Part shown: positions 7,994 through 12,444 of the stretch, one piece after another
Layout of the letters: each line of letters starts with the position of its first letter
How positions within the stretch are numbered: the first letter of the stretch is position 1
From: a virus
Length of the DNA: 12,817 nt
Strand: one strand, 5' to 3'
Virus genome (UHGV): UHGV-0147886
The notes under the pieces: model-generated
The model's database searches: none
Seen by the model: only the letters and a program-made list of their open reading frames with translations
What the model was told of the DNA's origin: nothing
Position numbers and translations under genes: made by a program

Positions 7994-10117
7994 TTAATCG
8001 TCTGCCTCAGGCTGGAACATCATCACGTAAAAAACATGCTGCTTACCCCCAATTTTGCCGAGCGCCTTTTTCTTGTAACGGCGATCGTTACCCGCTTCCA
8101 GCATTCCGGCAGCACTCAACGCGCGGGCAAAGTGAGACGGATTAAATCCCTGTGCTATCTCACCCTCAAACACATGAGGAAACGTGTAAAAACGGAACTC
8201 ATCATCTTCATTTCTGATACTCCCCTTTCTGTATCCGGCAAGGTCTTTAATCGGTAAATCACGCTCATCACTGTTTGGGTAAGGAAGGTATCGACTGAAC
8301 CCGAACGACGACAAAAACGCCTCAGCCTGTTCAACCATCTGTTTAAATTCCCTGTTACCCGTGCCGAACTCCTTCACCCAGGCATTAAAGTTATGCTGTA
8401 TTGCGTCCCGGCATTCCTGCGCGGCCCAGCCAGTTACATGACCGGAAAGCACAAGCGCAGCCTCCAGTATGGCGAAACGTTCCCCCACGCGGTGGACCTG
8501 CTCGCCGTAGCTCTCCGGTATCAGGTTGTGCCACCGTTCGCGGCATTCCCTTACCGTGTCCTTTGCCTCCTGCTGGTGGTCTGCCAGCCATTTAACCCAC
8601 TCACGACCCGCCGCCCCGTGATTTGCAGTCCAGGCATCCTTTAACGCGTCTGCGTGCGCCTTTCCGGTGCTGTATTCGTGAAATTGCGTGGCTTTCTCCA
8701 TCGGTACGTTAAGCAGACGGACAAGCTGGCCTGCTTTGACTTTTACCCCCTCACTTTTGAGGAATGTCTCAACATCCATTTCTCCGGTGCTGATTGCCAC
8801 CGTGCGCCAGTGTTTGATCTCCCTGTTGCCGCCGTCCTTCGCCCCCTGTAATTTCCCCGAACCGTTAAACAGCGTATAGGCTGACGTGGACACTTCCCGC
8901 GCGTTTCCGGCCTGGCCTATTTCATCCAGGGGTAACAGCCCGTCGTTGTGTGCTTCGGCCTCGTTGGCGATACCTAACGCCGTTCCGTACCAGGTCAGCC
9001 GTTGCGCGTCCGGCTCTCCCCATAAACTTGAAGCGATGTTCTGCGTGGTGGTTTTCCCTGCCGATGACTGTTCGAAAAGATGTACCCCGAAGCCGTCAGC
9101 ACCAACAAGGCCAATCAAAGGTGCTGCCAGTGACGTGGCAACACCCAGCATCATGGACGGATTGCCACCAGCCAGCCGCGCCACGCTGTCGCGCCAGCCC
9201 TCCGCCGTACCCGCAACCGAATAGCCATTAACAGCGGCACTTTTTCCGGTAAACAGGATCGGTTTTTCAGAATCACCAATGATTGAACCGTCCGGCATGA
9301 TGTACGCGCCAAAATGCCAGCCCGTTGTTGTGCTTAACTGCCATTCCTCATGGCTTCCGCTTAACTGCATCCAGTCAGCCAGGATAGCCCTGTATTTGCC
9401 ATTTGTTGTCACATTCAGCCCGTGATCTTTAAGCAACCGCCAGCCGTCACGGTCGCCAATGCCACCACACGGGATCGCCATTGTGATGACTTCATGGTTT
9501 GCTAATTTTTTCCAGCGCATCACGCGGTAATGCTCTTTACCGATCGTCCCCGTTCCCAGTAGTTCAAGCGGAGAACATAACCACGTCTCAGGCCGGATAA
9601 TTTCGCCTGACTGCTTATCCACTTTGGGCGTTACCCAGAAAACACCATCGACGCGACTTTCAACGCGGGGCTTTAATTCATCATCCTGATAGCATGGCTC
9701 TTTTTTCTTTACAGGCAGTTCAACTACCTTTTTCTTTTCCGCCTGCTCTGCCCGTTCACGTTCCAGATATTCGCGCCAGTTCTCCCGTTTCTGGCTGTGC
9801 ATTCCTTCAGGATAATAATCAGCATCCCTGACACCTGCCGCTGCCAGTTTCTGCCCGATGGTATTAACAAGCCCCGGACGCAATAACCCCGCCTGATAGA
9901 GACGCACGCGATAGCGTCCGTCCGGTACGATTTGCAGGTTGTCCAGTTCGGCAAGTTGTTGCTCTCCAAGCCAGACAGGAGGCACGTTATCGCCAGCCAG
10001 TCGCCCGTCCTGTTCCTGCCACTGCTTCGCATGTGCCCACGCATCACTACCCGCAAAAATGATGACTTCCGTCATTTTGTCACGCGGCTGGTGTTTTAAA
10101 TTTGGCGCTTTTTTCAT
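7994..10117 (-). CDS. Replication initiator, P-loop NTPase of the primase-helicase type (SF3/DUF927-like)
   Basis: About 707 aa from ATG 10117-10115 (RBS GGAGAG; ATGA overlap with the upstream ORF; alternative GTG at 10132). Central Walker A ...EQSSAGKTTT... and Walker B ...LLPLDEIG.... Followed directly by the iteron cluster. A primase function for the N-terminal domain is inferred from context only. Confidence 0.75.
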   Translation of the reverse strand: MKKAPNLKHQPRDKMTEVIIFAGSDAWAHAKQWQEQDGRLAGDNVPPVWLGEQQLAELDNLQIVPDGRYRVRLYQAGLLRPGLVNTIGQKLAAAGVRDADYYPEGMHSQKRENWREYLERERAEQAEKKKVVELPVKKKEPCYQDDELKPRVESRVDGVFWVTPKVDKQSGEIIRPETWLCSPLELLGTGTIGKEHYRVMRWKKLANHEVITMAIPCGGIGDRDGWRLLKDHGLNVTTNGKYRAILADWMQLSGSHEEWQLSTTTGWHFGAYIMPDGSIIGDSEKPILFTGKSAAVNGYSVAGTAEGWRDSVARLAGGNPSMMLGVATSLAAPLIGLVGADGFGVHLFEQSSAGKTTTQNIASSLWGEPDAQRLTWYGTALGIANEAEAHNDGLLPLDEIGQAGNAREVSTSAYTLFNGSGKLQGAKDGGNREIKHWRTVAISTGEMDVETFLKSEGVKVKAGQLVRLLNVPMEKATQFHEYSTGKAHADALKDAWTANHGAAGREWVKWLADHQQEAKDTVRECRERWHNLIPESYGEQVHRVGERFAILEAALVLSGHVTGWAAQECRDAIQHNFNAWVKEFGTGNREFKQMVEQAEAFLSSFGFSRYLPYPNSDERDLPIKDLAGYRKGSIRNEDDEFRFYTFPHVFEGEIAQGFNPSHFARALSAAGMLEAGNDRRYKKKALGKIGGKQHVFYVMMFQPEADD

Positions 10118-10413
10118 TTCTGCTCTCTCCACGCGGCAATCATGTTTTTCAGTTCCTGTAGTTTTTTATCCACATCCACACGTGACACATGGTTATTTCT
10201 GGAAAGCGGGATTTCCCGCCGGAATCTGCAAATAAAGATCTCCACGTTCAGCGAACTATGAAATGAATAGCCATCACGAATAAAATAAACACGGTCAAAC
10301 ATCAGTTCTTTTACCGTTACTCTGTTACCGTTCTTATCCAGATAAATAGCGCCGGGGATAATTTTGGGGTGTGCATAACCGCTGGCAGTCAAGCCAGATA
10401 AATATGTTCTCAT
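10114..10413 (-). CDS. Hypothetical 99-aa protein
   Basis: ATG 10413-10411. Stop overlaps the replication protein start (ATGA). Part of a tightly coupled operon. No recognisable motif. Confidence 0.55.
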   Translation of the reverse strand: MRTYLSGLTASGYAHPKIIPGAIYLDKNGNRVTVKELMFDRVYFIRDGYSFHSSLNVEIFICRFRREIPLSRNNHVSRVDVDKKLQELKNMIAAWREQK

Positions 10414-10419
10414 GATTAT

Positions 10420-10740
10420 TTATCCCCGATTTGAATCAGTATTCGCTTTCTTTATGGCATTTAATGCATCTGCGGCATTTTCAATGGTGCACCGTAACGA
10501 AATATCAAACTGCCCAAGCATTGCCAGTAACAAACCGATATTACCCATATCAATGCGCATAGCCTTTTCGTCATATTCCTCATTTTCTGACGCATGCCAC
10601 ATCAGGCTACCAATTGACGCAACAGCCATTGATATATTGTCAGTAGCCCCATCCGCAGCGGAATAAACCTTTTTAGCAATATCATGCTCACAGTTAAAAT
10701 GCGGATTAATCAGGTACTGGTAATTTGACATATCAGGCAT
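10420..10740 (-). CDS. Hypothetical 106-aa protein
   Basis: ATG 10740-10738 with RBS AGGGGG. Overlaps the upstream ORF stop by 8 nt. No recognisable motif. Confidence 0.55.
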   Translation of the reverse strand: MPDMSNYQYLINPHFNCEHDIAKKVYSAADGATDNISMAVASIGSLMWHASENEEYDEKAMRIDMGNIGLLLAMLGQFDISLRCTIENAADALNAIKKANTDSNRG

Positions 10741-10936
10741 GGCACACCCCCTGACGAATACGGGCGGCGAATACCATCACGCAGCCAGCCGGGGATTGCT
10801 GGCGTGCTTCCTGTTCGCTGGTGGCCACGATGTGAATCACGCGCGGTTGTGCGGTGCTCAGGGCGATAAAACGCCAGATGTATTTATTCAGGTTGTGCGA
10901 GTCCCGCCCTTGCGGGTGTATGGTATGATTTCTCAT
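10733..10936 (-). CDS. Hypothetical 67-aa protein, first gene of the replication operon (possibly Icd-like; weak recollection only)
   Basis: ATG 10936-10934 with GAGG 5 nt upstream. The longer ORF to 11026 starts at TTG inside the promoter region. The motif ...WRFIALSTAQPRVIHIVATSEQEARQQ... resembles small Icd-like proteins that sit upstream of primases in enterobacterial islands. Not verified. Confidence 0.45.
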   Translation of the reverse strand: MRNHTIHPQGRDSHNLNKYIWRFIALSTAQPRVIHIVATSEQEARQQSPAGCVMVFAARIRQGVCHA

Positions 10937-11034
10937 AACTGCCTCGATACTCTCGTTATCGTTGGTGGTTAGACGCCCCGTATGTGTTTCCGGCACTGCG
11001 GGGCGTTGCTCTTTGTATTTCAACAATCCTTTCG

Positions 11035-11112
11035 GTGTGTTTCATGTTATGAGCGCATGAAACACACGTCAAGGCTTTTTGTATTTCTTTTTTTGTGTAT
11101 ACTGAAACACAC
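11035..11112. promoter_or_regulatory. Divergent control region: palindromic operator overlapping a sigma70-like promoter for the replication operon
   Basis: Perfect inverted repeat GTGTGTTTCATG (11035-11046), 9-nt spacer, CATGAAACACAC (11056-11067). A third half-site-like ACTGAAACACAC at 11101-11112. Minus-strand -35 TTGACG (11072-11067), 17-nt spacer, -10 TAACAT (11049-11044), so the palindrome covers the spacer and -10. A TATACT hexamer at 11098-11103 may serve the plus-strand gene. Confidence 0.55.
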
Positions 11113-11133
11113 CGATGATTAGGAGTTTCAGAA

Positions 11134-11439
11134 ATGGCAACGGCTAACAAAAACGCAAAATCACAACTGACAACTGTCAGAGTCCCACTAGATGTTATGC
11201 AAGGGATGGAATCCGTTAAGCTGGACGGCGAAAGCAATGCCGGATTTATCGTAACCGCCATGCGCGGAGAAATAGCCCGCCGCCAAGCAGAAGGCAGCGG
11301 AGAAAATCCCCTTGTGTCGTCACTGGATGCCCTGGCTAAGGTCGAACAAATCGGCATCAAAGCAGCGGAAGAAATCGGGCAGCTTGTCACCGTTGCACGC
11401 GAAGAACTCCAGCGTCGCAAGACCAAAGAACCAGAGTAA
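11134..11439 (+). CDS. Putative small DNA-binding regulator (possible ribbon-helix-helix), divergent from the replication operon
   Basis: 101 aa. ATG 11134 with RBS AGGAG 8 nt upstream. N-terminal strand-helix-helix-like segment (...QLTTVRVPLDVMQGMESVKL...GFIVTAMRGEIARRQ...). Regulator role inferred from position next to the operator. Confidence 0.6.
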   Translation: MATANKNAKSQLTTVRVPLDVMQGMESVKLDGESNAGFIVTAMRGEIARRQAEGSGENPLVSSLDALAKVEQIGIKAAEEIGQLVTVAREELQRRKTKEPE

Positions 11440-11496
11440 TCACCATCAGCGCCTTGGTGTAAGGTATTACGGCGCATTGCTATGCAGGACAACACA

Positions 11497-11670
11497 ATGA
11501 CCGATAAAGAATTGACCAAAACATTATCACCGGCACGGAAAAGACGGCGCAGAAAGATAGAGCATGAATCAGAAAGATTCGCGCCATGTGCTTTTGCTCT
11601 TGAGAAATTCCTTAAAGAGCACAGGAAAAAGCTCTCGTTGCAAACCTTGGAACGAACCGAATCTGACTGA
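11497..11670 (+). CDS. Hypothetical small basic protein (57 aa)
   Basis: ATG 11497 with AGGA 7 nt upstream (alternative ATG at 11482). Highly basic stretch ARKRRRRK. Followed by a strong terminator. Coding status uncertain. Confidence 0.35.
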   Translation: MTDKELTKTLSPARKRRRRKIEHESERFAPCAFALEKFLKEHRKKLSLQTLERTESD

Positions 11671-11734
11671 TCAAATTGCCCACCAGCCAGCAAATCGCTA
11701 TGATGTTCGAGCTTATGTTTAGTGTTTTCCCATT

Positions 11735-11763
11735 GGCGACCGCCCCCGGTCGCCTTTGTTTTA
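11735..11763 (+). terminator. Rho-independent terminator for the plus-strand unit
   Basis: GGCGACCG-CCCC-CGGTCGCC (8-bp stem, 4-nt loop, 11735-11754) followed by TTTGTTTTAT. On the minus strand the hairpin has no T tract after it. Confidence 0.7.
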
Positions 11764-12444
11764 TGCGCGATCATGTGCCGCCTCCCACTCATATTTATCG
11801 AAATCAATCTGCCCCATCGCATCTACCAGCCGTACCGCCGGACGCAGAACTTTGAGTTCCTTCTTGCGGATATTCATTCCATTACTGCCCTGTGAGCCAT
11901 GAAACTGCTTAGAATGCTTGTCCGCACGAGTCACGGCGTTTTGCGCATCAGTAACCGGCATGGCGATCAGTTCTTCGAGCGACGGCAGATCCACATGATG
12001 GAAAGTGACAAACTCCGGGCAACGGAAATAAGTTTTCACGAGCTGGCGCTGTACCTGCCAGGCCAAATCATCGTTAAACGGTTTGGTCAGCAGCAGATAG
12101 CCTGATTCCGTAATCAGTGTTACGCGGCCACGTATCGGACTGTTCATTTTTTTGCCAGGGCGTTTAATGCCCCTGTCTAAATATCCAGCCCCTCCCCATT
12201 CGACCTCTGACGCGCCGACAATAAAAAAGTCCTCACCATCAATGAAGCGAGTGCGATTACGCTGAAAAGTCTTTTTAGCCGTGTCTTTAGGTCGCTGGTG
12301 CGCGGTATCAATCATTGCGAACGTCACCACGCGTTGCCCGTGAAATTCGACGGCAGGAAGCTGTTTAAGCTGCACGCTAATATCGCTTTTACTGGCAACA
12401 GGGTGAGCGAATCCCTGCCCGTTAAGGGCATTAATATTTTTCAT
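11761..12444 (-). CDS. ORF6N-domain (KilA-N-like) phage regulatory protein
   Basis: 227 aa. N-terminal region ...GQRVVTFAMIDTAHQRPKDTAKKTFQRNRTRFIDGEDFF...LITESGYLLLTKPFNDDLAWQVQRQLVKTYF matches the ORF6N pattern (RG..VMLD.DLA..Y...TK.LN.AVKRN..RFPEDFMF...AFTE.GV.ML...). ATG 12444-12442. Confidence 0.65.
   Translation of the reverse strand: MKNINALNGQGFAHPVASKSDISVQLKQLPAVEFHGQRVVTFAMIDTAHQRPKDTAKKTFQRNRTRFIDGEDFFIVGASEVEWGGAGYLDRGIKRPGKKMNSPIRGRVTLITESGYLLLTKPFNDDLAWQVQRQLVKTYFRCPEFVTFHHVDLPSLEELIAMPVTDAQNAVTRADKHSKQFHGSQGSNGMNIRKKELKVLRPAVRLVDAMGQIDFDKYEWEAAHDRA

Follow-up and report, generated by a model that had tools for sequence, protein, structure and literature searches.

Genes and features at the locus

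The DNA analysed here is a stretch of 12,817 nt from the virus genome UHGV-0147886 (hereafter the window), in which three small consecutive open reading frames (ORFs) on the minus strand lie between a promoter-like site and the gene of a primase/helicase (Table 1). These ORFs are real genes, which open the replication operon of a phage satellite, namely an Escherichia coli capsid-forming phage-inducible chromosomal island (cf-PICI) of the EcCIEDL933/CP-933C type with a swapped early cassette. A first-pass annotation made from the sequence alone had already placed three genes of these sizes between a promoter and the replication protein and had seen no obvious catalytic motif in any of them, all of which is upheld. 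It had also regarded the function of all three as unknown, which no longer applies to ORF1, an Icd-like protein by its family match (71 bits), and to ORF3, which matches DUF4222 (61.7 bits), so that only ORF2 is left uncharacterised.

As the same annotation had proposed, each start has its own purine-rich Shine-Dalgarno-like run: GAGG 5 nt before the ATG of ORF1, AGGGGG 6 nt before ORF2, GGGGA 9 nt before ORF3 and GGAGAG 7 nt before the primase gene. Its further statement that the genes are joined by overlapping stop and start codons is correct for ORF1/ORF2 (8-nt overlap, ATGCCTGA) and for ORF3/primase (4-nt overlap, ATGA), but not for ORF2/ORF3, which are separated by a 6-nt gap. For the replication protein, the GTG at 10132 given in a mechanical ORF list (712 aa) was considered as start; the ATG at 10117 (707 aa) is likelier, having the GGAG run 7 nt upstream and the ATGA overlap with ORF3, and it is also the start annotated for ECs1582, the Sakai Sp7 counterpart with 89% identity.

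Table 1. Position of the three ORFs and of the neighbouring features discussed in the text (window coordinates).
Feature	Position	Strand	Family match or remark
ORF1, 67 aa, start ATG, basic (pI 10.7), Icd-like by sequence; first cistron of the early/replication operon	10733..10936	-	NF033153
ORF2, 106 aa, acidic (pI 4.7) accessory protein, all-helical by a low-confidence prediction; shares 8 nt with the end of ORF1	10420..10740	-	phrog_15327
ORF3, 99 aa, basic (pI 9.9), RgdR-family DUF4222 protein; ATGA overlap of its stop with the primase start	10114..10413	-	
Replication protein, DUF927 primase/helicase, 707 aa, fourth cistron	7994..10117	-	PF06048, 164 bits; phrog_1139 DNA primase
Sigma-70-like promoter TTGACG-17-TAACAT	11044..11072	-	-35/-10 positions kept in three diverged versions of the region
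Operator-like perfect 12-bp inverted repeat GTGTGTTTCATG-9 nt-CATGAAACACAC	11034..11066		Overlaps the promoter spacer and the -10 element
Conserved 8-bp GC hairpin (ACGCCCCG...CGGGGCGT) in the leader of about 100 nt upstream of ORF1	10973..11006	-	Minimum free energy of the leader -26.4 kcal/mol, z -2.0
Divergent YlcI/YnfO-family gene, candidate regulator of the operon promoter	11134..11439	+	NF041551, 63 bits

Conservation of the three ORFs

DNA searches and IMG/VR scans provided more than 150 related loci, in which every distinct nucleotide variant is intact (27/27 for ORF1, 53/53 for ORF2 and 48/48 for ORF3). Thus, the check for conservation in related elements that had been suggested with the first-pass annotation revealed no broken variant, and frequent frameshifts were not seen. 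Ratios of non-synonymous to synonymous substitutions (dN/dS; pairwise Nei-Gojobori) are 0.50 for ORF1, 0.35 for ORF2 and 0.31 for ORF3, and in each of them most segregating sites are third codon positions. All three are under purifying selection. The NCBI pipeline annotates them in hundreds of E. coli genomes, and at least 80% of the cassette is found in 466 of 5426 complete E. coli genomes, with 96-99% identity among the matches listed. In about 1000 further genomes only the ORF1 part is matched, the match stopping at about position 10737, so that ORF1-matching DNA is present in 1461 of the 5426 genomes, i.e. about a quarter.

The ORFs are short, ORF2 has no curated family, and for a long time islands of the CP-933C type were recorded as cryptic prophages, so that one might think of open frames arisen by chance or of pseudogenes decaying in a defective prophage. 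This is extremely improbable, because all 128 distinct variants are intact, dN/dS is 0.31-0.50 with the third-position excess in each ORF, and NCBI annotates the genes across genomes; also, the family matches are far over their cut-offs and the cassette recurs in hundreds of complete genomes.

Identity of the element

Scans with Pfam, NCBIfam and PHROGs gave the gene order downstream of the cassette as DUF927 primase/helicase, an 82-aa ORF, single-stranded DNA-binding protein (SSB), HK97-type capsid, protease, portal, head-tail adaptor, HNH endonuclease, TerS and TerL. On its upstream side the cassette is flanked by the divergent YlcI/YnfO gene, an ORF6N antirepressor-like gene and also AlpA. 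Membership in the cf-PICIs is defined by several traits, including an integrase gene at one terminus and a total length of about 15 kb. An AlpA-type regulator (PF05930) occurs here together with a replicase module (DUF927/phrog_1139 primase), and the head and packaging set is complete, with seven of seven genes identified (capsid, protease, portal, head-tail adaptor, HNH, TerS, TerL). Of the window ORFs, 19 were compared with PHROGs, and none of these received a tail or lysis assignment; the scan covered part of the element, without ORFs below 40 aa and some other short ones. The window stops inside or just past the AlpA gene and no integrase is visible within it; in related loci with the same regulatory module, a tyrosine integrase lies just beyond AlpA. 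In the terminase and primase regions, DNA identity to Sakai Sp7 is 85-87%. Sp7 is the equivalent of CP-933C/OI-51 of EDL933 (PMC3378721), and this island serves as the prototype cf-PICI under the name EcCIEDL933 (10.1101/2025.02.11.637232).

The Icd-like protein encoded by ORF1

Against the NCBIfam model NF033153 ('host cell division inhibitor Icd-like'; cut-off 25 bits), ORF1 scored 71.2 bits over residues 19-62, thereby covering all 48 model positions. The same model gave 52.6 bits for Icd of P1 and 76.1 bits for a 65-aa ORF upstream of epsilon in P4. In direct BLASTP comparison, ORF1 and P1 Icd share 37% identity over 43 aa (E 6e-7), and an invariant core (W21 R22 F23, E41-E43 A44 R45, P49-G51, F56-A58 R59) is present in ORF1, in ECs1577 of Sakai Sp7, which is 57% identical to ORF1, in the allele of a further related locus (L005) and in P1 Icd. 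A gene of the ORF1 family is the first gene in all related loci. By these similarities, ORF1 is a member of the Icd family, and P1, P4 and the cf-PICIs all open an early operon with this one family of small proteins. When ORF1 was compared with 50,697 phage records by tblastn, P1 was missed owing to the shortness of the query, and the sole match was vB_KppS-Ant, which is apparently a cf-PICI. At 8168-8365 on the minus strand of P4 (L166), the old record has a 137-aa 'cI gene product', the C-terminal 65 aa of which constitute the Icd-like domain (76 bits).

A longer, TTG-initiated version of ORF1 (97 aa, to 11026) was dropped: a 1-nt indel between element types shifts its frame, while the upstream nucleotides are conserved. 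As the extension is thus not conserved as protein, the ATG at 10936 was taken as the start.

What the protein does can be judged from its relatives. In the P1 record, Icd is given as an inhibitor of cell division, and expression of ant apparently requires it. The 65-aa ORF of P4, which from its position rather than from the record we equate with Kil, would be the truncated form of Eta with a cell-killing function (PMC10111431). For strain ECOR61, Silas et al. (10.1101/2023.04.06.535777) described growth arrest triggered by phage through a prophage cluster of six genes, one of them coding for a DNA primase, and in this cluster an Icd-like gene is the likely effector. By analogy, the ORF1 product most likely blocks division or growth of the host cell during replication and packaging of the island.

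Alternatively, ORF1 might mainly serve as a translated leader cistron that prevents termination of the transcript and feeds ribosomes to the downstream genes, the peptide being secondary. The requirement of icd for ant in P1 can be understood in this way, and in P4 translation of Eta prevents transcription termination (PMC10111431). The invariable position of ORF1 as first cistron, the 8-nt overlap with ORF2 here and in a 42%-diverged element, and a conserved hairpin in the leader just 5' of ORF1 also fit. However, the core protein motif has been kept from P1 to P4 to the present element with dN/dS below 1, phenotypes at the level of the cell are known for P1 Icd and P4 Kil themselves, and comparison of the entire window with Rfam at E <= 1 brought up no C4/CI-type RNA upstream of the Icd-like gene. 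We regard a predominant leader function as possible, though not probable; the leader role and the protein role are not mutually exclusive.

The ECOR61 cluster suggests yet another use, in which the cassette is a phage-triggered growth-arrest module (superinfection exclusion or abortive infection): the product of an incoming phage turns on the operon and the Icd-like protein stops the cell. That cluster inhibits growth upon expression of phage orf24, and the effect is lost without the Icd-like gene (10.1101/2023.04.06.535777); moreover, helper phages switch on satellites through AlpA. Against this stand the absence of any match of ORF1, ORF2 or ORF3 to the PADLOC defence models (the sole one, at E 0.06, is noise), the negligible effect of EcCIEDL933 on helper fitness that has been reported (PMC10085698), and the long N-terminal extension of the ECOR61 protein, known here by description and not by sequence, since in ORF1 such an extension is not conserved as protein. 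A growth-arrest module of this kind is therefore unlikely, and inhibition of the host by ORF1 in the course of the island's own replication and packaging is the reading that we prefer.

The DUF4222 protein encoded by ORF3

ORF3 matches Pfam PF13973 (DUF4222) with 61.7 bits (cut-off 27) over residues 16-67. It agrees with RgdR (ECs1581 of Sakai Sp7), a regulator of E. coli O157 that belongs to the CP-933C/EcCIEDL933 island of O157 strains, in length (99 aa), position and ATGA coupling to the primase gene, and by its 32-35% identity it is a family member and positional equivalent of RgdR, not a close ortholog. RgdR activates LEE1 of the enterocyte effacement locus (LEE), represses motility and binds DNA non-specifically, activities known only for ECs1581 and C1493 (PMC3378721), and rgdR is encoded by every E. 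coli PICI analysed by Fillol-Salom et al. Among the literature that was searched, no DUF4222 protein other than RgdR had been studied. A scan of GTDB genomes with a DUF4222 alignment provided at least one locus.

In an AlphaFold model of ORF3 based on 58 family sequences (pLDDT 78, about 90 over residues 20-65), four strands and a short helix make up a small barrel, to which a long C-terminal helix is appended; the predicted fold is a Tudor/SH3-like small barrel with a C-terminal helix. It can be likened to Tudor-like domains that bind RNA polymerase, i.e. the N-terminal domain of CarD/CdnL, the C-terminal domain of UvrD/PcrA, the RID of Mfd and the KOW domain of NusG/Spt5. Because the fold-match scores are in the generic range for such folds, this resemblance is a lead only. 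A BFVD fold search with the model returned only unnamed small barrels and DUF1653, and a PDB sequence search with ORF1, ORF2 and ORF3 gave nothing significant. Taking RgdR at LEE1 and on motility as a guide, ORF3 is most likely a low-specificity transcription co-regulator associated with nucleic acid or polymerase.

The acidic protein encoded by ORF2

ORF2 is a member of phrog_15327 (E 2.8e-71), a PHROG without assigned function, and has no match in Pfam, NCBIfam, PADLOC or PDB. In an exhaustive HMMER search, its relatives amounted to 16 representatives among 1.84 billion proteins. Residues 50-85, approximately, resemble a single TPR_12-type repeat. The long HMMER matches are TPR-repeat proteins in which one helix-turn-helix stretch is matched repeatedly, and were set aside as resemblance, not homology. 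A single-sequence AF2 model with five helices was poor (pLDDT 44) and unusable for a fold search. Two further candidates for relatedness were rejected: the ECs1579/ECs1580 family of the same slot (profile-profile probability 0.5%) and P4 ORF106, which has equal length and lies upstream of alpha, but is a DUF5375 protein.

Two distant homologues (42% and 29% identical) are both located in integrase-bearing islands, in an operon that starts with an Icd-like gene. One of these operons has the same 8-nt overlap, an AAA_25 helicase at its end and a capsid-protease gene downstream; the operon of the other homologue is preceded upstream by AlpA, AntA and Bro-N together with a divergent YlcI/YnfO gene. 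IMG/VR scans with distant ORF2 homologues gave nothing. ORF2 is most likely an acidic helical accessory protein that works with ORF3 or modulates it.

Architecture and exchange of the cassette

The loci were recruited by matches to ORF2 or DUF4222, and the following counts of architectures are biased toward the present layout accordingly. In all 94 distinct loci holding both markers, the DUF4222 gene is on the same strand as the Icd-like gene and 220-1250 nt downstream of it. It is followed by a replicase gene in 93 of them, the last locus being cut, and this replicase is of one of three types (605-aa primase, 707-aa DUF927 protein, RepA-type helicase). The interval between the Icd-like and DUF4222 genes holds zero to five small ORFs from a shuffled pool; six of eight tested were acidic (pI 4.3-5.1). 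ORF2 accompanies 67 of 67 ORF3-type DUF4222 alleles but only 2 of 27 RgdR-type alleles, so that ORF2 and ORF3 behave like a module inherited as a unit. Both DUF4222 allele types are combined with different replicases and different Icd alleles.

The regular position before the replicase gene, together with the 4-nt overlap of DUF4222 stop and replicase start in four annotated loci and in the window, the basic character of ORF3 and the DNA binding of RgdR, would suit an accessory role in replication, for instance as a loader or origin-binding partner of the coupled replicase. We consider this very unlikely. One and the same DUF4222 allele occurs with unrelated replicases and vice versa, and this lack of co-variation argues against a replicase-specific role; furthermore, the gene upstream of P4 alpha is DUF5375 and not DUF4222, and distant satellites have the same operon without DUF4222.

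The first-pass annotation had pointed to this slot as one for genes of helper sensing, derepression or interference, and also for small proteins of anti-defence or host takeover. Its position indeed corresponds to that of epsilon in P4, but none of the ORFs matches Ash/epsilon or a PADLOC defence model, and the suggestion is supported in its positional part. If ORF2 and/or ORF3 were helper-directed factors, acting in derepression of a helper prophage or in interference like epsilon (Ash), the P4-like operon layout (Icd-like, epsilon, ORF151, ORF106, alpha), the high variability of the slot between elements, as expected of genes tracking different helpers, and an 'ash family' gene beside the Icd-like gene in some related loci would all be accounted for. 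Yet neither ORF2 nor ORF3 resembles Ash/epsilon (no match in Pfam, NCBIfam or PHROGs, and nothing by tblastn against P4) or an antirepressor of any family, upstream there is already a separate ORF6N antirepressor-like gene, and the known targets of RgdR are host promoters. A helper-directed function is thus rather unlikely, and an accessory role of ORF2 beside a transcription co-regulator remains the preferred reading. In a more far-reaching version of the latter, ORF2 and ORF3 would form a cognate acidic/basic pair: upon induction, the DUF4222 protein, as a Tudor-like CarD-style factor on RNA polymerase or DNA, would reprogram host or helper transcription, the acidic partner would switch it off or target it, and the variable slot would contain exchangeable modulators tuned to helpers or hosts. 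This extension is speculative, and we consider it doubtful as a whole.

DNA similarity to Sp7 ends about 40 nt into the primase gene. Across 10159-10936 the match is confined to 38 nt at the 3' end of ORF1, where it meets ORF2 (10737-10774), and as the three-ORF segment is otherwise without an Sp7 match, the early cassette must have been exchanged. Gene boundaries act as recombination joints in this exchange.

A family of small acidic ORFs starting with M-x-E-I-T-L-(H/Q)-(E/Q)-A-A-E (phrog_1478) recurs in the variable slot of distant satellites (L165:5299-5496, L002:7876-8067, L005:3764-3994). This recurrence suggests that tiny accessory genes are shuffled from a pool common to such elements.

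Promoter, operator and leader

The sigma-70-like site upstream of ORF1 is one of four promoter-like sites found versus 3.8 expected, and therefore weak evidence when taken alone. Besides the inverted repeat that overlaps it, extra operator half-sites were found at 11103-11112 and 10983-10990. All four copies of GAAACACA in the window fall in the 130 nt of 10983-11112, versus 0.49 expected, and none of 200 shuffles reached four; two of the copies make up the 12-bp inverted repeat. The promoter region occurs in three versions in related loci, with the half-sites TGAAACACACC, TGACATACACC and TGAATCGCACC, and each half-site version is paired with a distinct N-terminal sequence of the YlcI/YnfO protein (KSQLTTVRVP / KSQMTTVRIP / KSQQLNARFP). 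These pairings suggest that YlcI/YnfO is a repressor of the ribbon-helix-helix type and exists in forms of different specificity.

The nucleotides of the leader hairpin are conserved in all three operator types. As they are read in different frames, the hairpin is not coding. It was rejected as an intrinsic terminator, having no T-run after it, and the Rfam scan provided no family for it. Conceivably, it is a site of RNA processing or protein binding, or a target of antitermination.

Comparison with known systems

The closest known system is EcCIEDL933/CP-933C with Sp7 ECs1577-ECs1582, which is an element of the same type: as in the window, the Icd-like gene is followed by small acidic ORFs, a DUF4222 gene for a 99-aa protein that overlaps the start of the primase gene, the primase/helicase gene itself, a small ORF, SSB and an HK97-type head module. 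In Sp7 the slot holds three ORFs (61, 63 and 80 aa), whereas here it is filled by the single 106-aa ORF, and the Icd-like proteins are more alike (57% identity) than the DUF4222 proteins (32-35%).

The immI operon of P1 (c4 RNA - icd - ant1/ant2) likewise starts with a short Icd-family cistron that overlaps the next start and has the core motif in common with ORF1. It differs in its C4-type antisense RNA, of which no counterpart was detected here, and in the genes downstream, which are antirepressors in P1, while the present operon ends in a replicase.

The left operon of P4 (Vis/AlpA - eta/kil with CI RNA - epsilon - orf151 - orf106 - alpha) resembles the window in having an AlpA-family gene upstream and an Icd-like 65-aa ORF heading small ORFs that end in a primase. 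In contrast, the P4 slot holds epsilon (Ash), ORF151 and DUF5375, none of them related to ORF2 or ORF3; immunity of P4 is exerted through CI RNA, and the window has a protein-type operator with the divergent YlcI/YnfO gene instead; and P4 encodes no capsid. Control by a C4/CI-type RNA is a feature of the P1 and P4 operons, not of the Icd-like protein family.

Proposed function of the module

We propose that the three genes are the promoter-proximal part of the early operon of an EcCIEDL933/CP-933C-type cf-PICI and work as follows, the activities and the circuit being inferred by analogy with P1, P4, RgdR and ECOR61. The sigma-70-like promoter would be held silent via the operator palindrome, with the divergent YlcI/YnfO protein as the likely repressor. 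Upon induction of the island the promoter would fire and a single transcript would be formed, on which ribosomes load at the Icd-like ORF and are passed, across junctions that overlap or leave little space, to ORF2, ORF3 and the primase/helicase. The Icd-like product would arrest division or growth of the host, and translation of ORF1 may also keep the transcript readable. The DUF4222 protein would act as a low-specificity transcription co-factor, with the acidic ORF2 product as its partner or modulator, while the primase/helicase replicates the island. As a whole, i.e. including circuit and product roles, we assign this explanation a probability of about 60%.

Several observations weigh against it. 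The dN/dS of 0.5 of ORF1 indicates moderate constraint only. The identity of ORF3 to RgdR is low, and its residues 20-22 are P20-G21-A22 where RgdR has RGD. A single change in the RGD motif altered RgdR function (PMC3378721), so that the LEE-activating function of RgdR cannot be assumed for ORF3. Near the two distant ORF2 homologues, neither locus contains a DUF4222 gene. The linkage of ORF2 and ORF3 may stem from adjacency alone, the co-variation of YlcI and operator could equally be simple linkage of adjacent DNA, and the recruitment of the loci has the bias given above.

The module as such is already annotated and ordinary for a known class of satellites, with one small protein without known function (ORF2) in a variable slot. 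Despite the wide distribution of the cassette, it has never been defined what the Icd-like and RgdR-family genes do in satellite biology, and RgdR is known only via its side effect on virulence genes of enterohaemorrhagic E. coli. The comparison provides hypotheses that can be tested in the tractable EcCIEDL933: the DUF4222 gene is fixed, adjacent to the replicase yet independent of it, travels with a specific acidic partner, and its product has a predicted Tudor/SH3-like fold.

Other features of the window

A 288-aa minus-strand ORF at 10956-11822 is antisense to the YlcI/YnfO gene and to a 62-aa plus-strand ORF. Its Sakai counterpart (L002:6732-7475) is recorded as hypothetical protein ECs_1576, while RefSeq genomes annotate the plus-strand genes instead, and the antisense ORF is probably a mis-annotation.

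On the plus strand, a strong terminator-like hairpin, GGCGACCGCCCCCGGTCGCC with TTTGTTTTAT after it, is located at 11735-11754, between the plus-strand unit of YlcI and the 62-aa ORF on one side and the ORF6N gene, which is convergent on the minus strand, on the other. It separates the AlpA-ORF6N transcript from the Icd-like operon, whereas in P4 the AlpA homologue and eta are coupled.

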